IMG/VR virus record: IMGVR_UViG_3300027896_000027
DNA: 20,000 nucleotides
Direction: 5' to 3' (one strand)
Source of the DNA: an uncultured virus (IMG/VR IMGVR_UViG_3300027896_000027)
Taxonomy: Duplodnaviria > Heunggongvirae > Uroviricota > Caudoviricetes
The notes below the pieces were generated by a model that worked only from the letters and a program-made list of their open reading frames with translations, had not been told where the DNA came from and did not search any database. This document shows, in pieces, positions 1,879-19,009 of this stretch. The position numbers and the translations under genes were made by a program. Within the stretch, counting starts at the first letter, position 1, and every line of letters starts with the position of its first letter.

Positions 1879-3282
1879 ATGGAGATAGATGCAGTAAATA
1901 TTAAGCAGTCAACCGCCGATCCAATGGTCATTGATACGGGGAACCAAAAGATTCAGGGGCGGGTTGCGTCAAAGACCGTTCAATTTGGGCTTTTCACCAA
2001 CAACCGAAACGCAGTCTGGGCCTCCAAGAATCAGTTGAGAAAGGAATCTTACCCGTTCGCCACGCTTAATTTAAAGGTGAATCGAAACGCTTTTCCCTTT
2101 GAGACTGGCGATACCTTTAAATTTTCTTACTCAAAATATAACATCGTAGACATGGTGGTAAGAGTCCTGCAGAGAGGCGAGGCGGAACTTGAGTCAGAGG
2201 AAATTAACGTCGTGGTGATGGAAGATCTTTTTCAGATCACCAACACGATCTCAGAATACTCACCCACAACAAATCGTAAGCAGCCAAGGGTAGATTATAC
2301 GGTTGGCCCGATTATTCATGAAAAGCTTTTTGAACCTGTCTATGCTTGGTCTCTTGGAGAAGTGGCCATAACCCCCTTAGCTGCCAGAGAGTCTCAGATT
2401 GACCTTGGGTTCAATGCCTATATGAGTCTGGATGAAGGGGCTTCCTATTCTATAAACCCAATTGCTAAGGGATTATTTTTCAGGGCTTACGGGACGCTCG
2501 TTGGAAGCTATCCCAAAGAGACTTATGAGATCGATGAGTTGGTGGGGATGGTGATCGACTTTTCTAACGCGGATGTCGATCTGATTGAAAGTCAAACTTG
2601 GCCAGCGATTCTTTCGGGAAATCAAAACCTTGCTCTCCTTGGGGATGAGATCATTTCCTTTAAAACGATCACACCAGTTTCAGGGTCTCAATATAAGCTT
2701 GAGGACATCCTTCGAGGAAGGTATGGCACTATAAAACAGGCTCACGTAAATGGTGAAACTTTTTTCTTTCTTGGTCAGGATATCCCAGTCGTCACAAACA
2801 ATGATATTTCAACGGGAGCTGATAGGTTTTTTAAGCTCATTGGTTTTAATGCCGCTGAGTTTGGCGATATTTCTGTGGCGACTGCTATTGAACATCTATT
2901 CTTGGGGGTGGCGAAAACGCCCTACGTCCCGATTAATTTTGAAGCTAATGGCAATTCGTTTGCTGCCCGATACGATACTGACATCGTTCTCATCTGGTCG
3001 CCAAGGTATCGAAATAAAGGGGCGGGGATAGGAATTCCTGGGACAGTTCTTTCTGACCTGGATTATGAAGGTTTATTTGAGATTGAAGTTTGGGTTGGAG
3101 GCATTAAGGTGAGGACTCAAAGTGCCGTTGACGCCTTGACGTGGACTTATACCGAGGCGATGAATATCTCTGACAATGGTTCTCTGGCGAGCGAGGTGGC
3201 ATTTAAACTTTCTAACTATCGAACTGAAGATGTGATCACTTATCATTCGAGTCAGGCCCAAGTGACCTGTAAAAAGAATTAG
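1879..3282 (+). CDS. Phage tail tip/host-specificity protein, C-terminal part
   Basis: 467-aa ORF. The segments AVWASKNQLRKESYPFATLNLKV..FETGD and NLALLGDEIISF...ILRGRYGT resemble GTA/phage tail host-specificity proteins. Confidence 0.75.
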   Translation: MEIDAVNIKQSTADPMVIDTGNQKIQGRVASKTVQFGLFTNNRNAVWASKNQLRKESYPFATLNLKVNRNAFPFETGDTFKFSYSKYNIVDMVVRVLQRGEAELESEEINVVVMEDLFQITNTISEYSPTTNRKQPRVDYTVGPIIHEKLFEPVYAWSLGEVAITPLAARESQIDLGFNAYMSLDEGASYSINPIAKGLFFRAYGTLVGSYPKETYEIDELVGMVIDFSNADVDLIESQTWPAILSGNQNLALLGDEIISFKTITPVSGSQYKLEDILRGRYGTIKQAHVNGETFFFLGQDIPVVTNNDISTGADRFFKLIGFNAAEFGDISVATAIEHLFLGVAKTPYVPINFEANGNSFAARYDTDIVLIWSPRYRNKGAGIGIPGTVLSDLDYEGLFEIEVWVGGIKVRTQSAVDALTWTYTEAMNISDNGSLASEVAFKLSNYRTEDVITYHSSQAQVTCKKN

Positions 3283-4077: not shown

Positions 4078-7000
4078 ATGTCTTGGCTGAGCGGTTGGTC
4101 TTACAGAAAAAACAGACCGATAAAAAGGACTGACGGGCTTGTTACCAACTATCAGATGAAGCTTCTGGTAGGTGAAAGTGCTGGTTTGGGTAATGTCGAC
4201 TGCGCTGGCCACGTCTTATCGAATTTCAATGATCTTCGTTTTACTAATCTAAATGGCGATGTCCTTGATTATTGGATTGAGTCAATAAGCGGAACGGGCA
4301 CGAATCATATTGCTACGGTCTGGATTGAATTCGATTCGATCGATACCTCTGATACCACCTTCTACATGTACTACGGAAAGGCAGATGCGCCGGCTTACAG
4401 CGATGGGGCCGCTACATTCTTATTCTTTGATCATTTCTTGGGGTCGAGTCTCGGCGCTCAGTGGAACTCGCAGGGAACTCCTACTGTCTCTGGAAGTGAG
4501 GTGGCTCTCAAATCGGCAGCGACAGGTTGGGATGCAATTAAAGCAGCATTATACACGATTCAGTATGCCCGGATTAGGTCAAGATTTAAAGTAAGTGCTG
4601 TAAATAATCACGCTAATGGGCTTTCCAATAGCGCGATGAACACTACCTTCTACGCCGATGAAAGTGCTTATTTTCTTGGCGTGCCAGGCACTCCCGCACA
4701 AGTTTATGCTATCTCCTCACATAATGGGACTTTAACCCAAAGTTCTCATGTGAACTGGGATGGCTCGTATATGATCGGAGAGATGCTTTGGAAAAGTGGA
4801 GAGATTAAATATGCTAAGGATGATGCGGCAGCGTTTGCTACCTATACGACAAATCTACCAGATACGGCTTGTGCCCCACGAGCGGATGGAGCGCACGGTG
4901 CAAGCCAAGGAACCTTGACCCTTGATTGGTATTTTGTTAGCCAATATCTTTCTCCAGAACCAGCTTGGCAAGGTAGCTGGTCAAGTGAAGAACCGACAAC
5001 TACAAGTACGACAACTACAACTACTACGACTACAAGCACGACGACTACAAGCACGACGACCACAACCACAAGTACCACGACCACAAGTACCACGACCACA
5101 ACCACGAGTACGACGACCACAACCACAAGTACCACGACCACAAGTACCACGACCACAACCACGAGTACGACGACCACAACCACGACAACAACAACCACTA
5201 CGGCGGGACCAGATATACCTTGGATCGATAATTTTAATGACGGGTCTTTGGATACTACAAAATGGGGGACTTCCGTCGCGGGGGATGGTGCCGTTGACGA
5301 ACCAGCTGGAGATACCTTAGACATTACTGAGGGCGCAAATGCTAACAACGCCGCCATAGTTTATCTGAAGGACATTATTGATACCACGAAGGAATATGTC
5401 TACACCGTTAGGCATAAGATCGATGGGACGCCAAACGGTGGGATATTTTTACTTGCCGCGTATGACGGGGTTCCTGCCGTTTCAGACAATAATACGGTCA
5501 ATGCTAATCTAAGGCTTCAGGTTCTTTATGTTACGGGTACACCGGATCGTATTTACGTGGTTTACACTGATACATCTGGCAACTCTGAATATTGGGATGG
5601 GAGTTCTTGGCACACTGAGCCTACTCATATTGATATTATTGATGAGGCATCTTGGATAGATGTTTCTTTCATTGTTAAAAATAATAGTTGGAGAGTTTCA
5701 GTCAGGCGTTCAGACAATGCCAAGTCAATAGTTGAAGCCTATCCAATAGCTTTTTCTGCCCTTAAGGCTTACACAAATCTCCGTCTTTTTTGGGGGGATG
5801 CTTACAACAATTATTATTACGTCACCTCAATGAAGACCGACTTTTTTCGGTACGACAATCAGACTCCGATTTGGGGATGGTATAATGGTTGTACTGCCGC
5901 TGGGAACGATTACAAGATAGGTGGATGCATTTCCTACGACGGTGGAGACGTATTTCTGCGTCACCATGGCCTCTGGGATGTTGGTCCGTTGACGGGTGAG
6001 AATCAGGTTTGGGGTCCATGTGTCATTGAAGTTTCCGGGACCCTTTATATGTTTTACACGGTATATAGAAGTGCTGATCCATATAGCACAAAAAGAAGGA
6101 TTAGGCTATGCCATTCGTCCGATGGTGAGACCTGGACGGACGATGGGTATGTAACAACGCCCGGAGGCGCTGGAGCATGGGACGAGAATGGACACACCTT
6201 TCCACTGGTGGCTTATGACTCGATCGCAAATAATTTCAAGATGTATGTGGCGGGTTTTAATGCCTCTAATATTTATCAGGTGGGTTTATTTACTGCCGAT
6301 ACCATCACTGGGCCATGGACGCCAAATGGAGGCAACCCGATCATTGCGGTTGGTGGGGTAGGTTCATGGAATGAAACGGTTGTCATGGCTTTTGCCATTG
6401 AAGGGGGTTCTTACTTAACCCTTTGGGTTACTGGTGCAGATGCCGCCAACCTTTATAAGGTTGGAAAATATACCTCAATAGATTGGGTGACGTGGACTCC
6501 AGACGGATCAAACCCGATCATAGCCAGGGATGCTTCCAAGACTACTACTGCGTCTAATGTGGCCGCGTATGCTAAATCGATAACCGTGGCTGACAGTTCC
6601 CTGTTCTCTGTAAATGACCCAATCATAATTAGAGATACCGCTAATCAGGAGATAAATAGAATCTTAGGAATTCCAAATTCAACTCAGATTGATCTCTGGT
6701 ATCAGATTGATTGTGCCTATGGCTATACTACTCCTAATGTAATCGGACTTAACCACGATGATTTGGGTCAGGGTAATATTGGCGGGTCTCTTGCTTTTTT
6801 ATCAAGTTGGTTTCAGGCTACTCCCCACTCAGAAAAGATGTCTCGATGGGAGCTTAGCGGTGGAGTATGGGTTTATAAACCGTTAAAGAGTCCTGGATTA
6901 TCAGTGGGTGCGGTGTGGGATGCGGTTAGCGCTGAAAACCTAAAGTTCATACAGCCCAATATTTCACTGTCGGGTACGACGACCACAACCAGTACGACCA

Positions 7001-7173
7001 CGACCACTACAACGACCACCTCAACAACTACGACATCTACGACAACCACAACAACCAGTACCACCACGACCACTACAACGACCACCTCAACAACTACGAC
7101 ATCTACGACAACCACAACAACCAGTACCACAACAACATCGCCGCCCATCTTTATCTTGTGGCTGAGCGAATGA
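4078..7173 (+). CDS. Large virion-associated protein: DUF2341-like N-terminus, Thr/Ser tract, lectin-like domain, GH32/43/130-like five-bladed beta-propeller, second Thr/Ser tract
   Basis: 1031 aa. WLSGWSYRK...FNDLRFT..LDYWIE..TFYMYYG is DUF2341-like. Repeated blades WGPCVIEV..LYMFYT, HSSDGETWT, WDENG..FP, GPWT..GGNPII, WNE, SIDWVTWT..GSNPII. Confidence 0.7.
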   Translation: MSWLSGWSYRKNRPIKRTDGLVTNYQMKLLVGESAGLGNVDCAGHVLSNFNDLRFTNLNGDVLDYWIESISGTGTNHIATVWIEFDSIDTSDTTFYMYYGKADAPAYSDGAATFLFFDHFLGSSLGAQWNSQGTPTVSGSEVALKSAATGWDAIKAALYTIQYARIRSRFKVSAVNNHANGLSNSAMNTTFYADESAYFLGVPGTPAQVYAISSHNGTLTQSSHVNWDGSYMIGEMLWKSGEIKYAKDDAAAFATYTTNLPDTACAPRADGAHGASQGTLTLDWYFVSQYLSPEPAWQGSWSSEEPTTTSTTTTTTTTTSTTTTSTTTTTTSTTTTSTTTTTTSTTTTTTSTTTTSTTTTTTSTTTTTTTTTTTTAGPDIPWIDNFNDGSLDTTKWGTSVAGDGAVDEPAGDTLDITEGANANNAAIVYLKDIIDTTKEYVYTVRHKIDGTPNGGIFLLAAYDGVPAVSDNNTVNANLRLQVLYVTGTPDRIYVVYTDTSGNSEYWDGSSWHTEPTHIDIIDEASWIDVSFIVKNNSWRVSVRRSDNAKSIVEAYPIAFSALKAYTNLRLFWGDAYNNYYYVTSMKTDFFRYDNQTPIWGWYNGCTAAGNDYKIGGCISYDGGDVFLRHHGLWDVGPLTGENQVWGPCVIEVSGTLYMFYTVYRSADPYSTKRRIRLCHSSDGETWTDDGYVTTPGGAGAWDENGHTFPLVAYDSIANNFKMYVAGFNASNIYQVGLFTADTITGPWTPNGGNPIIAVGGVGSWNETVVMAFAIEGGSYLTLWVTGADAANLYKVGKYTSIDWVTWTPDGSNPIIARDASKTTTASNVAAYAKSITVADSSLFSVNDPIIIRDTANQEINRILGIPNSTQIDLWYQIDCAYGYTTPNVIGLNHDDLGQGNIGGSLAFLSSWFQATPHSEKMSRWELSGGVWVYKPLKSPGLSVGAVWDAVSAENLKFIQPNISLSGTTTTTSTTTTTTTTTSTTTTSTTTTTTSTTTTTTTTTSTTTTSTTTTTTSTTTTSPPIFILWLSE
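4996..5202 (+). repeat. Coding low-complexity Thr/Ser tract 1 (69 codons) with an exact 57-bp tandem duplication
   Basis: 5053-5109 is identical to 5110-5166, and a partial third copy follows. Confidence 0.95.
6976..7140 (+). repeat. Coding low-complexity Thr/Ser tract 2 (55 codons) with an exact 66-bp tandem duplication
   Basis: 6997-7062 is identical to 7063-7128. Confidence 0.95.
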
Positions 7174-7185
7174 AAGGAGAAGATT

Positions 7186-7377
7186 ATGTTTCAAGAAAAG
7201 ATTAAATGCTGTGAGTGTCAAGCTTGGGAAAGAGACGGGGCAGATGGAATATGTAGACGAAAGTCTCCTGTACCAGCGTGCCTTCCGAACAATGCAAAAG
7301 GATTTACTCTTGTGTGGCCAAGAACCAAGGCCAATGAAGGATGCTTTGAAGGCATTCTGATAGAGGTAAAAAGTTGA
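7186..7377 (+). CDS. Small Cys-rich hypothetical phage protein
   Basis: 63 aa, AAAGGAG RBS, CCECQAW..GICRRKSP..WP.T....CFE pattern. Confidence 0.7.
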   Translation: MFQEKIKCCECQAWERDGADGICRRKSPVPACLPNNAKGFTLVWPRTKANEGCFEGILIEVKS

Positions 7378-8441
7378 AGCTGAGTGTCGTGATCCCAAAC
7401 CGGAACGACACGGTGATGTTGGCCATCACGGTCAGAAGCGTTCTTGAGGAACTGAAGGCCGTCGAGGGTGGCGGAGAGATCGTGATCGTTGACAACTCAG
7501 ATGAAGATCTTTGGTTGATCTTGAAGACCATGAACGTCAGCCCTCTCGCCCTTCAGTACGTCGAAGAGGGGAAGATCCAACTGATTCATCAAAAGTTTCA
7601 AAGTATCTATTCTGCACGAGGAGAGGCTTTCAGATCAGCGAGAGGAGAATATTCTTATAATGTCGACAGCCACATGCTCGTCGGTCACAACACCTTGAAG
7701 GACATGGTTGACTTCATGGATGCAGACACAGAAGGCAAGGTTGGATTTGCTTTCTCACCGATCGGTTGGTTCAATGCCCACGAGGCCATCGCAAGGCACG
7801 ATATCCGAATTGACCAGGGGACGATCTTCGGCAACTGGGGAAAGCGATATTATAAGCCGATGAAGATCTGCTGGAACTTTGGATCGTGCATCTGTCGAAC
7901 AAAATGGTTCAATGAGGATTTTGGAGGATACGGTTTCTTTGACAAGAAAAGAGTTTCCTGGGGCGGCGGAGAATTTTACGCCGCCATAAAAAGTTGGCTT
8001 TTAGGATATGAAAATTGGGCGGTTCCAACAAGCCCTCAATATCACATTGGCCCATTTTCAAAAGAGATTGAGTCAAGGACTTGCTACCGATTCAGACAGT
8101 ACGGGGGTTCAGGGAACGGAAAACTTGGCATTGGAATCTTTGCGGCCTTCTATGCCCTTGGCGGAGATGAGATGAAGGAAGAGGCACGGAACGCAGAAGT
8201 CGCTGGCGTGGGGAGTAACTATGGCCTTAGCGTCGAGCGAGATTGGGAAACAGCCAAGGAACTTGCGCACGAGGATTGGCTGTGGTTGCGGGATCGACAG
8301 AAGTTAACCTATTTTAAGCTCATGGAAAAACAACCCTGGAGGGAAGACGGATGGGGAGATTGGAACAACTGGAAGCCGGACAAAGACGCCGGGATAAAAA
8401 GGGTCTTCAATCTGGCCAATCTAAGAGTGATCGAAAGATAA
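7374..8441 (+). CDS. GT-A fold glycosyltransferase (GT2/GT27, polypeptide GalNAc-transferase-like)
   Basis: LSVVIPNRND, EIVIVDNS, ARGEY..VDSH (DxH at 7665-7673), WGGGE....KSWLLG....VPTSPQYHI. The TTG start overlaps the upstream stop codon. Confidence 0.85.
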   Translation: MKLSVVIPNRNDTVMLAITVRSVLEELKAVEGGGEIVIVDNSDEDLWLILKTMNVSPLALQYVEEGKIQLIHQKFQSIYSARGEAFRSARGEYSYNVDSHMLVGHNTLKDMVDFMDADTEGKVGFAFSPIGWFNAHEAIARHDIRIDQGTIFGNWGKRYYKPMKICWNFGSCICRTKWFNEDFGGYGFFDKKRVSWGGGEFYAAIKSWLLGYENWAVPTSPQYHIGPFSKEIESRTCYRFRQYGGSGNGKLGIGIFAAFYALGGDEMKEEARNAEVAGVGSNYGLSVERDWETAKELAHEDWLWLRDRQKLTYFKLMEKQPWREDGWGDWNNWKPDKDAGIKRVFNLANLRVIER

Positions 8442-8455
8442 CGCAAAGAACCTGG

Positions 8456-8914
8456 ATGAAAGGCATCATCGCCGACGTTCATCCGAGCGTAAAGTTTGGA
8501 AAGAATGTTTCGGTCTGGTCATTCGCCGTGATCTGTCAGGGAGTGAAAATAGGAGAGAATTGTGCGATCGGTTCGGGCGTGTTTATAGGCAAGAATTGCA
8601 GGATAGGCAATAACGTGAGGATCCAAGATAAGGCACACTTGACTCCGGGCATGATCGTTGAGGACAATGTCTTCATCGGCCCGTGCGCCGTAACAATGAA
8701 CGATAAATACCCGGTCGTATTAAATCCTGATTACGCAAAGCGGCCACCTCATTTGCTGGAGGGGTGTTCGATTGGGGCAGGGGCTGTCATACTTCCTGGA
8801 GTCACAATTGGCAGAGATGCAACGGTGGGTGCGGGGGCAGTTGTGACGAAGGATGTTCCCGACAAGGTAACGGTTGTTGGATGCCCAGCAAGAGGAACAT
8901 TAGAATTAAAATAA
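8456..8914 (+). CDS. Hexapeptide-repeat (left-handed beta-helix) acetyltransferase, WbpD/FdtC-like sugar N-acetyltransferase
   Basis: IGENCAIG, IGNNVRIQ, VEDNVFIGP..MND, IGAGAVILPGVTIG..ATVGAGAVVTKDVP...VVGCPAR. Start placed at ATG 8456; the ORF is open from 8351. Confidence 0.85.
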   Translation: MKGIIADVHPSVKFGKNVSVWSFAVICQGVKIGENCAIGSGVFIGKNCRIGNNVRIQDKAHLTPGMIVEDNVFIGPCAVTMNDKYPVVLNPDYAKRPPHLLEGCSIGAGAVILPGVTIGRDATVGAGAVVTKDVPDKVTVVGCPARGTLELK

Positions 8915-8935
8915 CCTATCGGAAAGGGGACTAAA

Positions 8936-9361
8936 TTGAAAAAAAGATTAAGGGTTATTCTGATTGTCGTATTCGGATTAATTTCCGTCGTCTGTTTGTT
9001 GAATGGCCAGGCAAATGTTTATCCAGGAGCAGTACCTGAGCCTTTTCATTTCTCTTTAACGGAAGTCGTTGGTCTGATCAGCGGGGTTATTTCAATATTC
9101 ATGGTCATCGTGGGATTTCTGCTCAAGCGATCCGTCTTTGGAGAAATCGATGGGGTAAAAATTTTGGTTGAAAAGATGGATATCAGGAAACAGGATAAGA
9201 CGATGTGCGAACAGATCGAATCTGTGGCTTGTAGAGATCGTGAGGAGATGAAGAAGGATCTTAAGGATGGGGTTAAAAAATTCAGCAGGATAGATCGGAA
9301 CATTGACCGTATCATGTTGAAAATGAAGCTTCCGACCGAGGACAATAAGGTCGACGATTGA
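8936..9361 (+). CDS. Membrane protein, possible holin/antiholin
   Basis: N-terminal hydrophobic segment, a second TM (VVGLISGVISIFMVIVGFLL) and a charged C-terminal tail; first gene of the lysis-like block. Confidence 0.45.
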   Translation: MKKRLRVILIVVFGLISVVCLLNGQANVYPGAVPEPFHFSLTEVVGLISGVISIFMVIVGFLLKRSVFGEIDGVKILVEKMDIRKQDKTMCEQIESVACRDREEMKKDLKDGVKKFSRIDRNIDRIMLKMKLPTEDNKVDD

Positions 9362-9377
9362 AAGGAGGAAAGAAATC

Positions 9378-10118
9378 ATGAAAAGAAGATATGATTGGAT
9401 TAGAGATCTACCAGACCATAGGGACTTTATGTTCTTGCGGTTGCCGACGAAAATTCCGAGTGCGGTTGATCTTCGTCCGAAGTGTTCTCCGATAGAGGAT
9501 CAATTGAATCTCGGAAGCTGCACGGCAAATGCCGGAGTGGGCATCTATGAGTGTCTTGAGCACATTCAGGGGATGAGGTTTGATAATAAGTCTCGATTGC
9601 TCCTTTACTATAATACCCGGCTCATTGAGCGTACGGTTAACACCGACAGTGGAGGTACTATCAGAGATACGTTTAAGGCTCTTGCCAAGTGGGGAGTTTG
9701 CTCAGAAAAGTTATGGCCGTATGACATTCAAAAATTCGCAGTGCTGCCTCCGAAAAATTGTTATGCTGACGCCATAAAACACGAGATCATCGTTTATCAA
9801 AGGCTGTCTGTCCTCGATGATTTGCTCAACTGCCTTGCTCTTGGCTATCCGTTTGAATTTGGCTTCTCAGTTTATCAGTCCTTTGAGAGTGCTAAGGTTG
9901 CCAGGACTGGAATAGTGCCGATGCCGAAAAAGACCGAGGCTTTTCTCGGGGGCCATGCGGTCGACGGGGTTGGCTACGAGATAGATAAGAAGTGGATCAT
10001 CTGCCGGAACTCGTGGGGGCCAAAGTGGGGGGACTACGGATATTTTTATCTCCCATTTGATTACATTTCCAATCCCAATCTGGCCGCTGATTTTTGGGTG
10101 GCAAAGAAAGAGACGTGA
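9378..10118 (+). CDS. Papain-like cysteine peptidase (C1A)
   Basis: VDLR, DQLNLGSCTANA (catalytic Cys), GGHAV (His), RNSWG..WGD.GYFY (Asn). Confidence 0.9.
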   Translation: MKRRYDWIRDLPDHRDFMFLRLPTKIPSAVDLRPKCSPIEDQLNLGSCTANAGVGIYECLEHIQGMRFDNKSRLLLYYNTRLIERTVNTDSGGTIRDTFKALAKWGVCSEKLWPYDIQKFAVLPPKNCYADAIKHEIIVYQRLSVLDDLLNCLALGYPFEFGFSVYQSFESAKVARTGIVPMPKKTEAFLGGHAVDGVGYEIDKKWIICRNSWGPKWGDYGYFYLPFDYISNPNLAADFWVAKKET

Positions 10119-10166: not shown

Positions 10167-10352
10167 ATGATCGAAACTATCTTGACGGCGATTGCGAGGA
10201 AGGTCATATTTATGGCTCTCTTGTTTGGAGCTTATAAGTTCATCGACAATTTCTACTTTAAAGCATTTGACACCGATGTGGTGATTAAGGAGAATCCCAT
10301 TGCGATTTCGATTTTGCTTGGTCTTTTTGCTGTTGCCCTTGCTTTTGCTTAG
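10167..10352 (+). CDS. Small two-TM membrane protein (holin candidate)
   Basis: AAAGGAGGTG RBS before ATG 10167; two hydrophobic segments; overlaps the transglycosylase start. Confidence 0.55.
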   Translation: MIETILTAIARKVIFMALLFGAYKFIDNFYFKAFDTDVVIKENPIAISILLGLFAVALAFA

Positions 10353-10878
10353 TTGTAAAGGGGAGATAACAACAGAGGCAATAGCTGAGCCAGTGGTGAC
10401 TAAAGTGTCAATCCCTGAGTCGGTTGGGAAGTATGATTTACTCTTCAAGCGATGGGGTGAGTTCTATTTCCCTTTTGACGATTGGCGTTGGTGGAGGTGT
10501 CAAGGAATAGCAGAAAGTAATCTCGACCCAAATGCAGTGTCATGGTGTGGGGCTGTCGGAGTCATGCAAATCATGCCTGCTACTGCAACGGGTTTGGGTG
10601 TAAAAAACAGGTTGGATGCGGAGGAGAGCATTCAGGGAGGAATTAAATACGACAATCAGGTTGATAGAGTTTTTAAAAGTGTTGACCAGCCGGAGCGGAG
10701 GAAATTCATGTTTGCTGGTTACAATGCTGGACCTGGAAATATTATAAAGGCTAAAAAATTGGCCGGTTCTGATGTGTGGGATATTACCGCAAATTCTCTT
10801 AACCTTGTCACCGGCCATAATTCGTTAGAGACAATAAACTACGTTAAGAGGATCTGCAAAATTAAAAAAGACCTTTGA
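10300..10878 (+). CDS. Lytic transglycosylase (SLT/MltF-like domain), predicted lipoprotein; probable endolysin
   Basis: AESNLDPNAVS..GAVGVMQIMPATA, AGYNAGPGN, ETINYV; lipobox-like LLLLSC; AAGGAG RBS before the TTG. Confidence 0.88.
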   Translation: MRFRFCLVFLLLPLLLLSCKGEITTEAIAEPVVTKVSIPESVGKYDLLFKRWGEFYFPFDDWRWWRCQGIAESNLDPNAVSWCGAVGVMQIMPATATGLGVKNRLDAEESIQGGIKYDNQVDRVFKSVDQPERRKFMFAGYNAGPGNIIKAKKLAGSDVWDITANSLNLVTGHNSLETINYVKRICKIKKDL

Positions 10879-11269: not shown

Positions 11270-11689
11270 ATGACAAAGATATTAGTATTTATCAAATCGC
11301 TTCCGTGGTGGATTTGGATTGCTGCGATTATCGGAGTGATCTTTCTCTGGCAGGCTCTTTCTGGATGGTCGATGTCCAGAAAGTATTTCAACCTGGCCGT
11401 TCAGGGTCTCAAGACGGAAGAGTCTCAGGCCCTCAAGGATAAGGACGAATACATCAAGGCGTGCGAAAAGGACATCCAAGAAAAGAAGGCAGAGATCGAT
11501 CAGATCAAAAAAGAAAAGGCAGCATTACAGATCGATAAAGTCAATTCGGCCGCTGAAGTTGTCCGGCTAAAAAGGAGCAACGATGACCTTAAAAGGCAGA
11601 TTCGAGAAATCATTATTCCTGATGATCCTGATCGGATCATTGACGATCTGCGGAAACGCTTTCCCTCAATCCATAAGATTCAGCCTTGA
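11270..11689 (+). CDS. N-terminal TM plus coiled-coil protein (i-spanin/Rz-like)
   Basis: GGGAGG RBS; WWIWIAAIIGVIFLW TM followed by a heptad-rich coiled coil; lies downstream of the endolysin. Confidence 0.55.
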   Translation: MTKILVFIKSLPWWIWIAAIIGVIFLWQALSGWSMSRKYFNLAVQGLKTEESQALKDKDEYIKACEKDIQEKKAEIDQIKKEKAALQIDKVNSAAEVVRLKRSNDDLKRQIREIIIPDDPDRIIDDLRKRFPSIHKIQP

Positions 11690-12032
11690 ACTTCCAGATC
11701 TCAAGGAGTGGGATAAGCAGACCCAAGAATATCCGCTTCAAAAGAAATTGATCGACGATCAGGCCAAGACAATTCAGGAGCTTGAAAAGTCTCTCGCCAT
11801 AGAAGTCCGAACCAATGAACTGAACCAGCGAGAGCTCAATTTAAAAGATCAGATCATCGGATTAAAAGATCAGGAGATAGCAGCGACGAACAGAGCCAAC
11901 GCTCAGTTGAAAGACGTCGCAGATAGGGCCATTAAGTTGGCTGAGATCTCGAAGCCGAAATCCAACTGGGAACTCCAGGGAATTCTCTCTGGGATGGCGT
12001 TAGCCGTCGGATATTTTCTCGGTCGGAGATAA
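11583..12032 (+). CDS. Secreted coiled-coil protein with C-terminal hydrophobic anchor (second spanin-like component)
   Basis: AAAGGAG RBS inside the previous gene (107-nt overlap, different frame); signal-like N-terminus, coiled coil, C-terminal GILSGMALAVGYFLGRR. Confidence 0.5.
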   Translation: MTLKGRFEKSLFLMILIGSLTICGNAFPQSIRFSLELPDLKEWDKQTQEYPLQKKLIDDQAKTIQELEKSLAIEVRTNELNQRELNLKDQIIGLKDQEIAATNRANAQLKDVADRAIKLAEISKPKSNWELQGILSGMALAVGYFLGRR

Positions 12033-12216
12033 CCCATGAGGAGCATGGTGATTCCCATCGTTAGACCGATCGTATATGGCGTAACACCCCCTTATTAGTC
12101 CAGGGAATATTCTCCTTCAACCCTTTATCCCCTTTTATTAAAACCCGCAAAACTCCATCCCTAAAACCTTAATAATATTAATGGGTTATTCGCTTCTCTT
12201 TTTTTTCTTTATTTTC

Positions 12217-12245
12217 TTGATTTTTACTTTGTGGTATACTATAAT
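12217..12245 (+). promoter_or_regulatory. Sigma70-type promoter
   Basis: TTGATT (12217-12222), 17 nt, TATAAT (12240-12245); overlapping TGnTATACT; T-rich upstream tract. Confidence 0.6.
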
Positions 12246-12442
12246 ACTCTGGACAGGTGAGGGGACAGTGAGATATATAGTGAGATTATTGGAGAATTTA
12301 TACAAGGAAAACAAAGTGGCAAAAAATGGTATTTTGGTGGCAAAATGCCGGCACTTTTTAAACATGACCATTTTTAACCTATTAAGATTATTACAGAAGA
12401 TTTTTTACAAAGTTGGAGCGGTTCTTGGATATATAATAGACA

Positions 12443-12455
12443 TGGTCTTTGACAA
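12443..12455 (+). promoter_or_regulatory. boxA-like antitermination element
   Basis: TGGTCTTTGACAA matches the rrn boxA consensus TGCTCTTTAACAA at 11/13, just after TATAAT at 12432-12437. Confidence 0.5.
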
Positions 12456-12599
12456 TTAAATATCCCGAACATCCAAAGTAGGGAAGCCAATACGAAGCAG
12501 ACCAAGCTGGTTGGTCAGTTAGATGGACGAAGCAGACTCTGAGGGGTCTGAAAGTAGTCCTCCCCGAATGGCTCAAAAACAAAGAGGGCGGGGCAGAGA

Positions 12600-12670
12600 G
12601 CAGAGGGGCAGAAGAATGAGCAATCAATCTTCTGCTAATGCACAAAGCCTGGTCCCAAGTCCAGGGTAAA
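12600..12670 (+). ncRNA. Twister ribozyme, circularly permuted (type P5-like)
   Basis: GCA(P2') GAGGG GCAGAAGA(P1') ... TCTTCTGC(P1) TAA TGC(P2) AC AAAG CCTGG TCCCAAGT CCAGG(P4) GTAAA. Pseudoknots CCC/GGG and AC/GT. Predicted cleavage between U12636 and A12637. Confidence 0.8.
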
Positions 12671-12693
12671 TAAAAATCCAAAAGGAGGACGAT

Positions 12694-12849
12694 ATGGAAA
12701 ACAAAGAAAAGAGAATAGAGGCATACGGAGTGAAGGGATTAAAGAATACGCCATGGAGAAAAGTTTTTATAAGCCTTAAAGCCTTTGAAAAGTGGCTGGA
12801 AAAAAATGATGGCTATGTGGAGGTTCTTGGAACAAGAGAGGTAGAATAA
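12694..12849 (+). CDS. Small hypothetical early protein (51 aa, MENKEKRIEAYGVKGLKNTPWRKVF...)
   Basis: Translated manually (absent from the ORF track); AAAAGGAGG RBS; TAA at 12847-12849. Confidence 0.75.
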   Translation: MENKEKRIEAYGVKGLKNTPWRKVFISLKAFEKWLEKNDGYVEVLGTREVE

Positions 12850-12876
12850 TGGACAAATCAAGAAAGGAGGAAAGTC

Positions 12877-13005
12877 ATGAAGGGTAACATTACAAAGAAA
12901 AGCTTTTTTGGAATCTGGAAGGTCATTGGATTTCTAACAGCGATTAAGATTCTATTTTCTTTAGAGCCAGTCGCACTTCAAATCCTCGTTAAGGGGATTA
13001 AGTAA
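12877..13005 (+). CDS. Small hydrophobic hypothetical protein (42 aa, MKGNITKKSFFGIWKVIG...)
   Basis: Translated manually; AAAGGAGG RBS. Confidence 0.65.
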   Translation: MKGNITKKSFFGIWKVIGFLTAIKILFSLEPVALQILVKGIK

Positions 13006-13023
13006 AAAAGAAAGAAGGAGACC

Positions 13024-13221
13024 ATGAGAACAAGAAGTTATAAAAGAATGAAAGCTGAGACAGAAGAGAGAATAAGAAAAGATCTTCAAAACAAAAAGTG
13101 TAAAATCTGTAAACGTGAAGGTTTAACCCTGGACAAAAATGATATCTGCCATAAATGCTGGCAGGATATTCAAGATTCAAAAGGAGGAGACCATGAAGAC
13201 AAAAGTTGTAATGGAGATTGA
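13024..13221 (+). CDS. Small Zn-finger-like protein (CKIC...CHKC)
   Basis: AAGGAG RBS; two CxxC pairs. Confidence 0.6.
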   Translation: MRTRSYKRMKAETEERIRKDLQNKKCKICKREGLTLDKNDICHKCWQDIQDSKGGDHEDKSCNGD

Positions 13222-13339
13222 AGTCAATGATGGTGAGATGGATGGCGACGGTCAAATTGAAGAATATATTAAAATGACCTTGGAAAATGGACCAGCAAAG
13301 GTCACGGTTGATTCAATCAACGCCAGGGAAATTTATTAA
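13193..13339 (+). CDS. Small acidic hypothetical protein (48 aa)
   Basis: AAAAGGAGG RBS before ATG 13193, an internal Met of track ORF 13139..13339. Confidence 0.65.
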   Translation: MKTKVVMEIEVNDGEMDGDGQIEEYIKMTLENGPAKVTVDSINAREIY

Positions 13340-13378
13340 AACCCTTAACCGCTCAATGAGCAAAAACGGAGGAGACCA

Positions 13379-13975
13379 ATGGAAAAGAATAAAATGTATG
13401 AGATCACTGTGGTAGAAGTAACACAATATGGGGCAAGCAGTTCACGTGTAGGCCTTAAACTTAATTCTCTGGAAGATTGCAAGAAGATCATTGAGATTGC
13501 TAAAATTGCAAATTGAGAAATTAACCTGACTGACGGCAGCTTTAGCGAAGAGTTGGTAGAAAGGTCTGAAGCATATCAAAATTTCCTTAACAAGGAAGCA
13601 GATGAGCGGGTGGAGTGGATCAAAAGCCAGATTGAAAAAACCGAGCGGATTAACGCTACTCCTAAAGAGTATATTTCCAAGATCCAACTTCCCGATGGTT
13701 GCAAGATTACCTATGAGCGCTCAGACGCCAATTTTAAGGCCCACATCTCTTCAAAAATTAGTTGGGGCCTTGGCACCAAGGTTTTTCACAATGAACATTC
13801 TCGATCGCTTTATGTCTATGAATATACCACCAAGGATATGCGAGTTCAGGTTGGTAAATTTGCCCGTGACATGACAGGATTTTTTGGAGAGGCCAGGCAT
13901 CAGATCAACCCTGAAATTATCCGTGACATTGTAAAAGAATTTGATGAGATCAGCGCCAAGATTAGAAACTCATAA
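13379..13975 (+). pseudogene. Hypothetical gene interrupted by a single in-frame TGA at 13514-13516 (nonsense, readthrough, or two ORFs)
   Basis: GGAGGAG RBS and ATG 13379 give 45 codons, then TGA, and the same frame continues without a stop into track ORF 13553..13975, which lacks a good RBS. Confidence 0.55.
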
Positions 13976-13976
13976 A

Positions 13977-14031
13977 ATCATCCTGACGAGACCTGAATGG
14001 TCGAAACCCGAGTTAAGCTCGGGTCGGTGAT
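13977..14031 (+). ncRNA. Hammerhead ribozyme, type I
   Basis: Stem I ATCATC/GGTGAT; core CTGACGA (13983-13989); stem II GACC-TGAAT-GGTC; GAAA (14003-14006); stem III CCCGAG-TTAAG-CTCGGG; GTC cleavage triplet, cut after C14025. Confidence 0.93.
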
Positions 14032-14060
14032 AAAATAAAATCCAAAAGGAGGATGAAAAG

Positions 14061-14375
14061 ATGAACGAACGACAGGCACAAGAGAAAGGGTATCATTTTC
14101 ATGGAGCGTATTCCCACAGTAAAGAAGAGATGAAGCGAACGGCAGCAGGGTTGAGAGAGAAAGGAAACAAAGCCATTGTGGTAGATGTCCCGTCCAGTAA
14201 ATATTCTCGGGGGGGCGGAGGCATGGGATACTCAGTGTATTGGATTGAGTCTGAGGAGAACATCATAGAAAGGCACAAAGTGGAAGATCTCTTAAAGAGA
14301 AATCAATTACTTGCGGAGCGAGAAGGACTCGTTGCTCGTATTGCAGAGATCGATTCTTTGGTGAAAGAACTTTAA
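14061..14375 (+). CDS. Hypothetical early protein
   Basis: 104 aa, AAAAGGAGG RBS. Confidence 0.75.
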   Translation: MNERQAQEKGYHFHGAYSHSKEEMKRTAAGLREKGNKAIVVDVPSSKYSRGGGGMGYSVYWIESEENIIERHKVEDLLKRNQLLAEREGLVARIAEIDSLVKEL

Positions 14376-14407
14376 TTTTAGAATCTATTTAAAAGGAGGA
14401 TGAAAAA

Positions 14408-14629
14408 ATGGCAATAAAACAATTACCAAACAGAGGAGAGAAGCTTGAGAATGGGGCCACAGTAATTGATTCAGCATTGGGAAAAACATATCCTATCGTC
14501 TTAGCGATGTGGCGTTCCGAATTCGTCACATGGGATTGGAACGCAGAAGAAGGCTACATTTATGCTGGAAATTATTTTACAGATATCTTAGCCGCAGCGA
14601 AGGATTTTAAAAAGAGATTGAATGGTTGA
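14408..14629 (+). CDS. Hypothetical early protein
   Basis: 73 aa, AAAAGGAGG RBS; LENGATVI..EFVTW..GNYF..A..DF..R pattern seen in small phage proteins. Confidence 0.75.
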   Translation: MAIKQLPNRGEKLENGATVIDSALGKTYPIVLAMWRSEFVTWDWNAEEGYIYAGNYFTDILAAAKDFKKRLNG

Positions 14630-14663
14630 AAGACATGAACAAACTAAGAAAGGAGGACGGGAG

Positions 14664-14954
14664 ATGGGAATATCAGCAGACATAGAAGAATTGAAGAAGC
14701 TGGTAAGAGAAAAGGGAATGGACCCGGAAGAGTTCTTCCCATCTTGCCGAGGATGTGGGTATTGCTGCTGGGAGGCGACGTGCTCTTTGGGGGTGCAGTT
14801 GCATGGAAGTCAACATCCTTGTCCTTCTCTTCTATGGAATGGAAAGCGATACGTGTGCGAGTTAGCAGCGGAATTTAAGGATCATCTGCATATTGGATGT
14901 GGGTGTCCGAGCACTTTAAACGATTGGAGAAAAGATGTCAAAAAAAGGTTTTAG
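14664..14954 (+). CDS. CxxCxxCC-motif (YkgJ-like) metal/Fe-S-binding protein
   Basis: CRGCGYCC plus further Cys (CPSL, YVCEL, GCGCP); start moved to ATG 14664 after AAAGGAGG. Confidence 0.65.
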   Translation: MGISADIEELKKLVREKGMDPEEFFPSCRGCGYCCWEATCSLGVQLHGSQHPCPSLLWNGKRYVCELAAEFKDHLHIGCGCPSTLNDWRKDVKKRF

Positions 14955-14969
14955 AAAGGAGATTAAATC

Positions 14970-15674
14970 ATGAAACTCAAAGATTTTGAAAAATTAGTTT
15001 CAGGGACTGAAGTCGTGATCAAAAGACGCCGAGCTAAGCTCGAAGGGAGCATTCATATTAGTGGAGGATTTGGGCAGACAAACATATCTCATCCGGCGGA
15101 ATACGGCTGGGGTGAATTTCGTTATCTGGATACCGGGCGGCGAGTGACTAAACGGAATCGTCAGGTAGAGTTAGCACCAAAATGGAAGGAGGACAAAATG
15201 ACAAGAACAGCGAAGAAAATTGAACAAAGATTGATGTCTGATTTGCTTACTATGGCAGAAACCAGTAAGCAGTATCTGAACGGGGAGCAGTGGGCGGTCA
15301 ACGCCGTTGCCATGGCTCGAATGATTTTTGGGCAGGAAGATCCACGTAAACCTCTTTTCATCACAGAACCTTCCAACGATGGAATTACGGTTCAGTCAAT
15401 GGAGTTTCTCAAGAAGAACCTTTCTAAGCTTGGCCCCATAGTTAGGATTAGGGGCTATAAAGATGAGAATAAACTTGAGGAGTTTGATTATTGGGTTGAG
15501 TTCGCGGATCGAAATCACAACACAATCCGAGTGTCAGGTTTTTCCTGGGGGTACGGTGGCGAAGGACCAAATGGCCTTGCCGATGCCTGCAAGCTGGTCG
15601 GCTTCCCTCTTACACTTTCAGACATAGCGGGTATACCGATGGAGACCAACTGGGAAAAGTTTAAATCTAACTAA
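14970..15674 (+). CDS. Hypothetical protein with C-terminal GFSWGYGGEGP (DUF6166-like) motif; internal in-frame start at 15198
   Basis: 234 aa; AAAGGAG RBS; internal AAGGAGG-ACAAA-ATG. Confidence 0.65.
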   Translation: MKLKDFEKLVSGTEVVIKRRRAKLEGSIHISGGFGQTNISHPAEYGWGEFRYLDTGRRVTKRNRQVELAPKWKEDKMTRTAKKIEQRLMSDLLTMAETSKQYLNGEQWAVNAVAMARMIFGQEDPRKPLFITEPSNDGITVQSMEFLKKNLSKLGPIVRIRGYKDENKLEEFDYWVEFADRNHNTIRVSGFSWGYGGEGPNGLADACKLVGFPLTLSDIAGIPMETNWEKFKSN

Positions 15675-15702
15675 TAATCTCAGAGTGAGAAAGGAGGAAA
15701 AA

Positions 15703-15900
15703 ATGTTAGTTTATCATATCGGAATTTTCGATACTCAGACGAAAAAAGTGACCACAATTCTTTGCTTGCCAGAGAGAAGAAGAGATCCGAAGAGAATTAC
15801 AAGAACCTCAATTAATAAATGGATTCAATCAATTATGGGCTCCCAATGGTGGGACGAAAATTGGCCAAAAGTTTCAACCGTTACGAAACGAGTCAATTAA
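15703..15900 (+). CDS. Hypothetical protein
   Basis: AAAGGAGG RBS before ATG 15703. Confidence 0.65.
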   Translation: MLVYHIGIFDTQTKKVTTILCLPERRRDPKRITRTSINKWIQSIMGSQWWDENWPKVSTVTKRVN

Positions 15901-15926
15901 TCTCCGATAGAAAGGAGGATACTAAA

Positions 15927-16274
15927 ATGGCGAGCTATTGGGTAAAGATCCAAGTGAGTGGAAGCAATATCAAGTCAGTAAGAAAAAAGATGGAGAAGGT
16001 TTTTCCAGGAGAGGCGTTCAGTGTGGATAAGATCAACCCTAATCGTAGCCGAGCTGAGCGGCTGAGCGAAGCCGAAAGCTCAGTGGAAGATGCGAAGAGT
16101 ACTGTCGAAGAGCTCAAAGAGGAGATCGAGAGTTGGATTGGCAATCTTCCTGAGAACCTTGAAGGTGGAAATAAGGCGAGTGAGTTGGAAGAATGTCAGC
16201 AAGCTCTGGAGGAGATTGTCGACGGCCTGGAGCAGATAGACTTCAGCAGTGTCAATTTTCCCGGTATGATGTAA
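15927..16274 (+). CDS. Hypothetical acidic coiled-coil protein
   Basis: AAAGGAGG RBS before ATG 15927; ELKEEIESWIGNLPENLEGG..A.ELEE helical region. Confidence 0.7.
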   Translation: MASYWVKIQVSGSNIKSVRKKMEKVFPGEAFSVDKINPNRSRAERLSEAESSVEDAKSTVEELKEEIESWIGNLPENLEGGNKASELEECQQALEEIVDGLEQIDFSSVNFPGMM

Positions 16275-16288
16275 AGGAGGAGACGTAA

Positions 16289-16504
16289 ATGAAGCAAATA
16301 GATAATGTCAATTTTCACCTCACAATGACAAAGAGATTTATTTCTATCACCATTAAATATACTTGCCTTTGTGGAAGCACCATTACAGCACATCGGTACA
16401 TCCCGGGAGGAAACCAGCCCATCGTGTGTGTGAAGTGCGGTAAAACCTTGAGGTTGGTAGAGAGGAGGAAAAGTGAATATCGAAAGAGTTCGAATCAACT
16501 ATGA
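16289..16504 (+). CDS. Small Zn-ribbon protein (YTCLCG...CVKCG)
   Basis: AAAGGAGG RBS; CxC and CxxC motifs. Confidence 0.65.
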   Translation: MKQIDNVNFHLTMTKRFISITIKYTCLCGSTITAHRYIPGGNQPIVCVKCGKTLRLVERRKSEYRKSSNQL

Positions 16505-16997
16505 TGACTACAGACGGCTTATCGCCGAAAGAGCATGGTACTGGGCCGAACGCACAGGATGGGATTTTGCAGAACTAATGGCGGAGGGTAATCTTGTTTT
16601 CGTCCTGGCCCTTCGAGAATGGAAGAGGGAGAGATCTCGCTTTTCTACATTCCTTTATATTCGACTCAACGGTCGCTTTGGCAACTTGACCAAAGGACTC
16701 TGGAGAGGAGAAATAGCGGACGTAGATCCAGATCAGATTTCGTCTTCCGACGGCAATCCTGAGCATGTAGAAGCTTTAAAGGAGATGATTAGGCACTTGT
16801 CTAAAGATGCCCGAACCCTGGTCGAGTGCATCCTGGAGACCCCGCGAGATCTGATGTGGATGGTTGGACATCATGGGAAAGGTGTCAAAATTACTAAGCG
16901 TAAGCTCGAGAAGTATTTTGTCCAGAAAAAGGGTTGGAGCCACCCGCGGTGCTGGCAGGCGTCCTCAGAGATTCGTTTAGCGTTGAATACCTTATAA
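16473..16997 (+). CDS. Phage-encoded sigma70-family (region 2-containing) sigma factor-like protein
   Basis: ELMAEGNLVFVLALREWKRERSRFSTFLY resembles sigma region 2 (DLIQEGN.GL..A...F......FSTYA); AGGAGG RBS before the GTG; helical C-terminus. Confidence 0.7.
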   Translation: MNIERVRINYDDYRRLIAERAWYWAERTGWDFAELMAEGNLVFVLALREWKRERSRFSTFLYIRLNGRFGNLTKGLWRGEIADVDPDQISSSDGNPEHVEALKEMIRHLSKDARTLVECILETPRDLMWMVGHHGKGVKITKRKLEKYFVQKKGWSHPRCWQASSEIRLALNTL

Positions 16998-17011
16998 AAG
17001 AGGGGGTTAAA

Positions 17012-19009
17012 ATGAGCCAAACAGCCGACAAGGCCACTAAAGCGCAACCTGTTACCACCTATGAGGAGTTATCTCAATTAATTGACTCCTCTCCAGAGTG
17101 GACTGTGGGTTGCCTCATCAAGCTCTACCAGTTACAGACTCCAGATGAGCAACAGGCGCGGGCTACCCATCATCTCAATGATTGCGGGTTCAATAGCTTC
17201 GATGCCGGCCCCTTGACCAGCATGGCCCGGTTCTATTTGGACAGAGGGTTTCTGACGCTGAGACAGCTGGCTTTTGCCCGCAATACTCTTAAGAAGTATG
17301 TTAATCAGTTGCTCCAGGTTGGAGTTGATCCCTTGCCCGTTAAGCCTTTCACTCCAGTCCGAGAGAGAACCATCCAGACGGCCTCTCTGTTACTTAAAGA
17401 TGAGAAACCGGTGGGGATTCAGGTTCGGTTCAACTTCCCAAGAGGGGATAAGCGGTTCGGTGAGATGGTCGCCAACATTAAGAGTCTGCCTGACCGCCAC
17501 TGGATTCCTGAACAGAAGTATTGGAGAGTAGGCTTATCATTGGAAGGGGGGAAGAAACTGAAAGAGTGGGGATTTCAATTCTCTGACGGCCTCCAGAAGT
17601 GGTTTGATGATTTGGTCAGACCTGTCGATGAGAAGTCCATAGACATGAGCCAGCTTGATTCCCGTCTCTATCCGTTTCAACGTACGGGGGTAGCTTTTAT
17701 CGAATCTCGGAAAGGGAGGGCATTGATTGGTGATGAAATGGGGCTCGGGAAAACTGCTGAGGCTGTTTCCTGGCTCAAGCTTCATCCTGATTTGAGACCT
17801 GTAATTGTGGTTTGCCCAGCGTCATTGAAAATCAATTGGGAGAGAGAACTGAAATTGTGGGGGCTTGAGAAGGAGAGGATTCAAATCGTTTCTGGAAAGA
17901 AAAATGGTTATGTCTTAACTGGTCAGATTATCATTATTAACTATGATATTCTGACAGCTTGGCTGGGAGCTCTGGAGACTTACAAGCCGAGGGTTGTAAT
18001 CCTTGACGAAGTCCATTATACGAAATCTCGAAAAGCTCAAAGGACTAAAGCCTCTAAGGTATTGGCCAAAAAGGTCCCTCATATAATCGCACTTAGCGGT
18101 ACTCCAATCGTCAATCGACCAATAGAATTTTTCAATTCCATAAATATGATTCGTCCAGACATATTCCCTGATTTTTGGTCTTTTGCTCAGAACTTTTGTG
18201 GTGCACAGTGGAATGGATTTGGATGGAACTTCAGCGGGGCCACCAATACTGATAAGCTCCACAAACTTCTAACAGAAACCATCATGCTCCGGCGTCTCAA
18301 GAAAGATGTCCTAAAAGATCTTCCTGACAAGGTTCATGCGGTAGTGCCTTTTGAGATTGAAAATAGAGATGAGTATAACCGGGCATCGACTAACATCATT
18401 GATTGGATTCTGAAGAATGAGGGGAAAGAGAAAGCCGATCGAGCTTCGCAGGCGGAGGTTTTAGTGGAATTTGAAAAGCTCAAACAGTTGGCTGTAAGGG
18501 GGAAGATAGAATTTGTCAAAGAGTGGGTTGCTGACTTCCTGGAGTCTGAAGAGAAGTTAGTCCTGTTCGCCACTCACACTTTAACCCTTGATATGCTCCA
18601 ACGGGCTTTTCCAAAGATTTCTGTTCGGCTTGATGGATCAACATCTCAGAAGGACCGACAGAGGGTAGTTGATGAGTTTCAGAATAATAATAGGGTCAAA
18701 CTCTTCCTGGGGAATGTTAAAGCGGCGGGGATTGGTATTACCCTCACCTCAGCCAGTAATGTTGCCTTTGTAGAACTCCCTTGGACCCCAGGAGATTATG
18801 AACAAGCTTCTGATCGGCTCCATAGGATAGGCCAGAAGGACACGGTCAACGTCTGGACGCTGGTGGCTCAGGACACCGTTGAAGAAGATATCGCAGTCAT
18901 ACTTTCAGAGAAACAAAAGGTCTTGGCAGCGGTTCTGGATGGTAGGCAAGTTGATGAAGGAACGGTCCTAAGTCTGTTGATTCAAAAGATAAAAGAAAAA
19001 AGACTTTAA
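17012..19009 (+). CDS. SNF2-family helicase/ATPase (SMARCAL1/HARP-like) with extra N-terminal domain
   Basis: LYPFQ, DEMGLGKT, VCPASLKINW, DEVH, LSGTPIVN, LRRLKKDVL, GIGITLT, QASDRLHRIGQ; start at ATG 17012 after GAGGGGG. Confidence 0.92.
   Translation: MSQTADKATKAQPVTTYEELSQLIDSSPEWTVGCLIKLYQLQTPDEQQARATHHLNDCGFNSFDAGPLTSMARFYLDRGFLTLRQLAFARNTLKKYVNQLLQVGVDPLPVKPFTPVRERTIQTASLLLKDEKPVGIQVRFNFPRGDKRFGEMVANIKSLPDRHWIPEQKYWRVGLSLEGGKKLKEWGFQFSDGLQKWFDDLVRPVDEKSIDMSQLDSRLYPFQRTGVAFIESRKGRALIGDEMGLGKTAEAVSWLKLHPDLRPVIVVCPASLKINWERELKLWGLEKERIQIVSGKKNGYVLTGQIIIINYDILTAWLGALETYKPRVVILDEVHYTKSRKAQRTKASKVLAKKVPHIIALSGTPIVNRPIEFFNSINMIRPDIFPDFWSFAQNFCGAQWNGFGWNFSGATNTDKLHKLLTETIMLRRLKKDVLKDLPDKVHAVVPFEIENRDEYNRASTNIIDWILKNEGKEKADRASQAEVLVEFEKLKQLAVRGKIEFVKEWVADFLESEEKLVLFATHTLTLDMLQRAFPKISVRLDGSTSQKDRQRVVDEFQNNNRVKLFLGNVKAAGIGITLTSASNVAFVELPWTPGDYEQASDRLHRIGQKDTVNVWTLVAQDTVEEDIAVILSEKQKVLAAVLDGRQVDEGTVLSLLIQKIKEKRL

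Follow-up and report, generated by a model that had tools for sequence, protein, structure and literature searches.

A predicted type-P5 twister ribozyme directly upstream of a ribosome-binding site in the early region of an uncultured tailed phage

Self-cleaving RNAs of the twister class were introduced by Roth et al. (2014), as cited in excerpts of PMC5408937 and PMC10085705. For hammerhead ribozymes, excerpts of Perreault et al. (2011; PMC3088659) describe several prophage copies that flank genes and cleave in vitro, with cleavage also seen in native polycistronic fragments. The same excerpts report a hammerhead in the haloviruses HF1/HF2 that lies 13 nt before the first early open reading frame (ORF), with a transcript 5' end at most 3 nt from the cleavage site, and propose that clustered prophage hammerheads divide long phage transcripts into mRNAs of gene length. 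Furthermore, twisters and hammerheads are known to lie close to phage-type genes and also to one another (excerpts of PMC10085705 and PMC6765202). The biological role of ribozymes linked to phage genes is termed unknown in the passages at hand of PMC6765202, PMC10085705, and PMC5408937.

In this study, we closely examined a 20,000-nt stretch of DNA (here called the window) from an uncultured virus of the class Caudoviricetes (IMG/VR record IMGVR_UViG_3300027896_000027). Judged by its sequence, the segment 12599-12665 on the plus strand is a copy of a known self-cleaving RNA class, the type-P5 twister ribozyme. It resembles the hammerheads in the excerpts of PMC3088659 in being a coding-strand ribozyme some tens of nucleotides before a phage early start codon, with a second ribozyme nearby; unlike them, it is a twister known from sequence, whereas theirs are backed by cleavage and 5'-end mapping. 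As in the co-location of twisters and hammerheads described before, a hammerhead candidate is found 1.3 kb from the twister, with phage genes around both. Here the two classes sit on nearly identical copies of a leader with a ribosome-binding site (RBS), a detail that the excerpts of PMC10085705 and PMC6765202 do not mention. The layout upstream of a gene has already been described for phages, and the present copy is an ordinary, if clean, instance of it. Still, it adds a clean, testable case to the long-standing question of why phages put self-cleaving ribozymes before early genes. RiboJ is an engineered hammerhead-plus-hairpin insulator that is placed before an RBS, where cleavage strips off the sequence context upstream and yields a leader with a 5'-OH end. 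The likeness of the phage locus to RiboJ is functional only and consists in a ribozyme of a self-cleaving type directly upstream of an RBS.

A preliminary description made from the letters alone had read the segment as a circularly permuted twister, and the covariance-model check bore this reading out. Searching the whole window with cmscan against Rfam 15 (4,227 families) yielded a single match above any gathering score, namely, Twister-P5 (RF02684) at 12599-12664 on the plus strand, with 51 bits compared to a gathering score of 37.6 and an E value of 3.5e-8. The match covers the full length of the model (positions 1 to 58 of 58) and exceeds the cut-off by 13 bits, and among the three twister models of the clan it is the type-P5 model that matches. 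The same model gave no matches in 14 control genomes. The match to the type-P5 twister family is far beyond chance. In addition, the minimum free energy (MFE) fold of 12599-12665 consists of exactly P2, P1, and P4 at -27 kcal/mol (z = -3.75), a value equalled by none of 200 shuffled sequences.

Model alignment and MFE fold agree on the permuted order of elements, P2 (5' strand), L1, P1 hairpin, UAA, P2 (3' strand), L2, and P4 hairpin, so that all the twister core elements listed in the preliminary description were recovered in the order given there. The whole motif extends from 12599 to 12665, one base beyond the Rfam match, so as to include the outer P4 pair C12648-G12665. The 5' strand of P2 (GCA, 12600-12602) pairs with UGC at 12639-12641 to form 3 bp, the fourth pair of the consensus being absent. 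It is followed by the 3' side of L1 (GAGGG, 12603-12607), which lies opposite UAA and matches the conserved GAGgG of the model. The P1 hairpin (12608-12635) is an inverted repeat with 8 bp between 12608-12615 and 12628-12635, extended beyond an A/A mismatch by 3 bp (UGA/UCA, 12617-12619 with 12624-12626) and capped by GCAA at 12620-12623. The UAA of L1 (12636-12638) corresponds to an invariant UAA in the model, with the predicted scissile bond between U12636 and A12637, where the preliminary description had also placed it; in solved twisters, the cleavage step is likewise U-A (PMC6154101). P4 spans 12648-12665 and is formed by CCUGG (12648-12652) and CCAGG (12661-12665) around the L4 loop UCCCAAGU (12653-12660). 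The 8-bp P1, its TGA-GCAA-TCA cap, the UAA/GAGGG L1, and the CCUGG/CCAGG P4 had each been named in the preliminary description and are all present in the sequence.

The nucleotides conserved in L1 (GAGGG / UAA), L2, and L4 (GUCCCAAG..C) equal the consensus except for the T2 positions, which co-vary. The copy shares with RF02684 the order of elements, a chain that is open between P4 and P2, a loop-closed P1, the conserved L1, L2, and L4 nucleotides, the UA step, and two pseudoknots. It departs from the type-P5 twister as printed in three respects, all of which are frequent in phage copies: T2 is made of A-U and C-G pairs, P2 has 3 instead of 4 bp, and one P4 pair (U12650-A12663) is U-A in place of the consensus C-G. 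The departures in T2 and P4 are both compensated. Within 12585-12615, the G-rich stretch just upstream of the motif partly repeats the 5' half of the ribozyme (AGAGGG..GGGGCAGAGA compared to AGAGGGGCAGAAGA), and GCAGAGA at 12593-12599 could pair with the 3' strand of P1 as a weaker alternative helix.

The tertiary contacts were assigned following the scheme in excerpts of PMC5408937. There, P4 is lengthened by two further pairs, an invariant G-C and a U·A; the two nucleotides enclosed by them make T2 with the L2 dinucleotide, and the remaining four L4 nucleotides make T1 with L1, with three Watson-Crick pairs. Mapped onto the present copy, the scheme from these excerpts places the invariant G-C pair at G12652-C12661 and the U·A pair at U12653·A12658. 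The L2 dinucleotide AC (12642-12643), as one strand of T2, is directly complementary to its partner (A12642-U12660 and C12643-G12659). T1 can form between GGG at 12605-12607 and the complementary CCC at 12654-12656, and we infer this assignment from the consensus and from the excerpts of PMC5408937.

The L2 dinucleotide is termed a "conserved GC" in the portion of the review PMC5408937 at hand, and the AC/GU pairing of the present copy had initially been described as a variant pseudoknot. We therefore compared T2 across the family, using a scan pattern in which the conserved blocks were fixed and the T2 positions were left free. In IMG/VR, the pattern hit 94 loci with 113 matches, 107 of them distinct; as it requires the consensus L1, P2, and L4 blocks, the resulting census carries no bias with regard to T2 but does not represent twisters as a whole. 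T2 was AC/GU in 56 of the 107 distinct copies, GC/GC in 38, GC/GU in 12, and of another kind in 1, and the A·C mismatch did not occur. In bacterial genomes and metagenome-assembled genomes (MAGs; 24 loci, n = 29), the corresponding counts were 10, 16, 2, and 1, again with no A·C. Consequently, the variant label stands with respect to the printed "conserved GC," but AC/GU is the commonest state in IMG/VR, and A-U/C-G is the majority state of T2 among phage type-P5 twisters in this pattern-based census. The proposal that AC/GU replaces GC/GC as a compensatory change agrees both with the direct complementarity and with the census, and the strict covariation, with no A·C in 136 instances, provides natural support for T2.

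A P2 of 3 bp and the lack of a P5 stem had been pointed out as atypical. Both are indeed found in the sequence, but both are usual in phage type-P5 twisters. In many IMG/VR matches, and in the present copy, the T2 dinucleotide comes immediately after UGC, so that a P2 of this length is common. For P5, the pairing energy of the 15-nt flanks was compared with that of shuffled sequences: in the window, no such stem was detected between the ends of the motif (flank duplex of just -2.3 kcal/mol; z = -0.62), and in 131 type-P5 instances the mean z was 0.00, with 4.6% of the values below -2. The Rfam model RF02684 is also without P5 pairs. Absent from the window, the family sample, and the Rfam model alike, P5 is not a defining feature in practice.

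The position of the ribozyme relative to translation signals was assessed by searching the adjoining 40 nt for a Shine-Dalgarno (SD)-like motif together with the start of an ORF of 30 or more codons. Such a site followed the ribozyme in 90 of the 107 IMG/VR twisters, compared to 7/107 on the antisense side and 29/210 at displaced points of the same strand. The distance from P4 to the start codon has a median of 21 nt across the family and is 28 nt in the window, and a start lies within 120 nt in 100/107 cases. Hence, the position ahead of an RBS is a family property of type-P5 twisters. Keyword searches of the literature did not find the RBS-proximity statistic or the T2 census, both of which may be recorded in Roth 2014 or Weinberg 2015 and their supplements. 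For a specialist, the present copy would be an expected find, and the T2 census, the RBS spacing, and the shared leader described below leave its classification unchanged.

In other phages, the same ribozyme occurs in arrays. Five IMG/VR records, picked because each held several pattern matches, contain 6, 8, 9, 11, and 15 matches to the Twister-P5 model (E values up to 0.001), which share one strand within each record and span 2 to 10 kb. All Rfam matches above cut-off in the five array regions were Twister-P5 (45/45; 43.5 to 66.2 bits), and the 51 bits of the window lie in the middle of this range. Arrays of type-P5 twisters were also seen in bacterial MAG contigs of distant phyla, one of which comprises ~7 kb of a MAG chromosome; these arrays presumably lie in prophages. 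Pattern matches to Twister-P5 occur in MAGs of many phyla, and the family is not confined to Clostridia.

Every sizeable ORF of the window is on the plus strand, and the stretch reads as part of a tailed phage. The lysis module includes an SLT transglycosylase (endolysin-like; 10300-10878) and a weakly spanin-like ORF (11270-11689), both identified by family matches, and a weak terminator-like hairpin follows at 11993-12008. Between the lysis module and the ribozyme lies a gene-poor region (12033-12598), which forms part of a gap of ~660 nt that reaches to 12693; the remaining intergenic gaps of the early region are shorter than 90 nt. This region holds a doubtful 92-amino-acid ORF (12181-12459) without a family match, which is overlapped by promoter-like and terminator-like sites. 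The promoter-like site at 12217-12245 is a consensus match only and no better than chance, as 6 such sites were found in the window and 6.2 are expected from shuffled sequences. A coding reading of the ORF at 12523-12669 was rejected in view of the missing SD-like sequence before ATG 12523 and the strong match to the RNA model.

Behind the ribozyme, an A-rich leader (12666-12693) carries an SD site and the 16-mer AAATCCAAAAGGAGGA at 12674-12689, and leads to the first ORF (12694-12849), which encodes 51 amino acids and has no PHROG or Pfam match. From 12694 onward, small early-type ORFs without family matches follow one another. The placement just upstream of the first early ORF, as previously described, agrees with this gene map, the ATG being 28 nt past P4. 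Since an early promoter was not located, the designation "leader of the early operon" follows from gene order only.

Further downstream, a type I hammerhead candidate was found at 13977-14031 on the plus strand, with predicted cleavage after C14025. The hammerhead core consensus comprises CUGANGA, GAAA, and UH around three stems, as is also seen in the model line, and the core of the candidate is intact (CUGACGA at 13983-13989, GAAA at 14003-14006, and U14024-C14025). Its MFE fold has three stems, with II and III capped and I open (z = -2.66). The match to Hammerhead_1 (RF00163) reached 29.4 bits compared to a gathering score of 34, with an E value of 0.0011 on the window and of 0.00028 on 5 kb, and it is reported as a candidate because this score is under the curated cut-off. 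A weak RAGATH-1-hammerhead match at 13947-14030 (29.1 bits compared to 56.3) overlaps it. Besides the twister, the hammerhead, and this overlap, a search of 12000-17000 for other ribozymes with E values up to 10 returned noise matches only.

The candidate ends 29 nt before the ATG of an ORF at 14061-14375, which encodes 104 amino acids and has no family match. The segment in front of this ORF (from 14032) is a second copy of the leader and RBS. The 16-mer AAATCCAAAAGGAGGA is identical behind both ribozymes, starting at 12674 and at 14038 (14038-14053), compared to 0.52 matches at up to 3 mismatches in shuffled sequences, and the repeat as a whole (12667-12720 and 14031-14084) extends over ~54 nt with 70% identity. 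The presence of two unrelated ribozyme classes on one leader suggests that it is the cut that matters, not the class. A third, looser copy of the leader at 13173-13188 precedes ATG 13193 and has no ribozyme.

Taken together, we consider it probable that the segment is a functional-looking type-P5 twister in the 5' leader that precedes the first of the small early-type ORFs, where it would cut itself and thereby process the transcript. Its most likely role is to process the early transcript shortly before the RBS by means of RNA alone, as has long been proposed for phage ribozymes that occur in clusters. In the mechanism that we propose, the transcribed RNA would fold into P1-T1-P2-T2 with P4 and then cut itself at U12636/A12637, probably soon after transcription. 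The upstream piece would terminate in the P1 hairpin and one U that bears a 2',3'-cyclic phosphate. On the other side of the cut, the mRNA would carry a 5'-OH and have as its first segment a 29-nt remnant of the ribozyme, including the P4 hairpin 11 nt from the end; this remnant would be followed by the 28-nt A-rich leader with its strong SD and by the ORF. Cleavage would thus free the translation start region from upstream RNA, be it an extended leader or transcripts that run on out of the lysis genes, and would give the message a fixed 5' end. The hammerhead candidate 1.3 kb downstream may do likewise for ORF 14061 via its nearly identical leader. How a 5'-OH affects the fate of the mRNA, whether by stabilizing, destabilizing, or insulating it, depends on the host. 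In Bacillus, RNase J1 breaks down the RNA with a 5'-OH that the glmS ribozyme leaves behind, so that stabilization by the cut is not a given.

Three other explanations of the locus were weighed against this role. The motif could be what is left of a decayed twister-like RNA that no longer cleaves, or it could match by chance within a 48-codon ORF, as the reading frame from ATG 12523 to TAA 12669 spans it. This is highly unlikely, because the match has an E value of 3.5e-8, every conserved nucleotide is present, and all changes are compensated; moreover, its score is mid-range among the matches of the phage arrays (43.5 to 66.2 bits). Alternatively, the main task of the ribozyme could lie at the boundary between modules: on a template that is circular or concatemeric, it would cut late transcripts that read through from the tail and lysis genes apart from the early genes, rather than process a transcript from an early promoter. 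Its location in the gap of ~660 nt after the lysis genes and on their strand would fit such a cut, as would the weakness of the only terminator-like hairpin, at 11993-12008. However, other phages carry this ribozyme repeatedly ahead of many consecutive small genes of one module, which is not a role at a boundary, and we regard this explanation as improbable. Cutting at the boundary and processing of the early transcript are, moreover, not mutually exclusive.

The remaining explanation concerns translation that is activated by cleavage: an anti-SD sequence upstream of the cut (GUCCUCC, 12557-12563) would mask the SD (GGAGGAC, 12684-12690) until self-cleavage detaches it and turns on the first early ORF. 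The MFE fold of 12520-12720 does pair these 7 nt with the SD, and the energy of the duplex (-14.7 kcal/mol) was reached by 0.85% of 2,000 shuffled sequences. At the second ribozyme, UCAUCCU in the 5' strand of the hammerhead candidate (13978-13984) is complementary to AGGAUGA at 14050-14056, but this pairing reaches a P value of only 0.085. Nor does the effect generalize across the family, given a mean z of 0.04 over 123 twister instances, with values below -2 in 6.5% of them compared to 1.6% in a downstream control, and CCTCC occurs in 5/135 upstream and 4/133 downstream segments. Furthermore, if the ribozyme is fast, cleavage would be over by the time the SD, which lies 120 nt downstream, is transcribed. 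Masking of this kind therefore appears improbable as well. A related idea, in which two ribozyme classes on copies of one leader-RBS cassette, with an anti-SD mask on the twister copy, make up a natural and portable "cut-to-translate" insulator, is only slightly less doubtful. If it were true, such a unit would make translation of the first early gene depend on folding of the ribozyme and, hence, on Mg2+ or temperature in the cell just infected. Processing of the early transcript by the twister is the reading we prefer to all of these.

We also searched for relatives of the phage. In a blastn search of 12000-15000 against GenBank phages, no match was obtained, and a search with the helicase described below found nothing in IMG/VR. 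In metagenomes, the helicase search returned two short contigs alone (4.1 and 2.4 kb), both without the junction region. The best phage matches of the helicase are 30 to 35% identical and come from phages with hosts of several phyla, so that they point to no particular host. One public run contains the stretch, a DNA run from a freshwater metagenome, and no RNA run is listed.

The other genes of the window were assigned by family matches as well. Two tail proteins (1-1866 and 1879-3282) are followed by a DUF2341 protein (4078-7173) and by a family-2 glycosyltransferase, a hexapeptide-repeat acyltransferase, and a papain-family (C1) peptidase (together 7374-10118); the location of this trio between tail and lysis genes is unusual. 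At the other end of the window, an SNF2 helicase is encoded at 16934-19009. The ORF just before it (16473-16997) shows a weak match to sigma-70 region 2 (E value of 3e-4, below the cut-off) and may encode a sigma-like factor of the phage.
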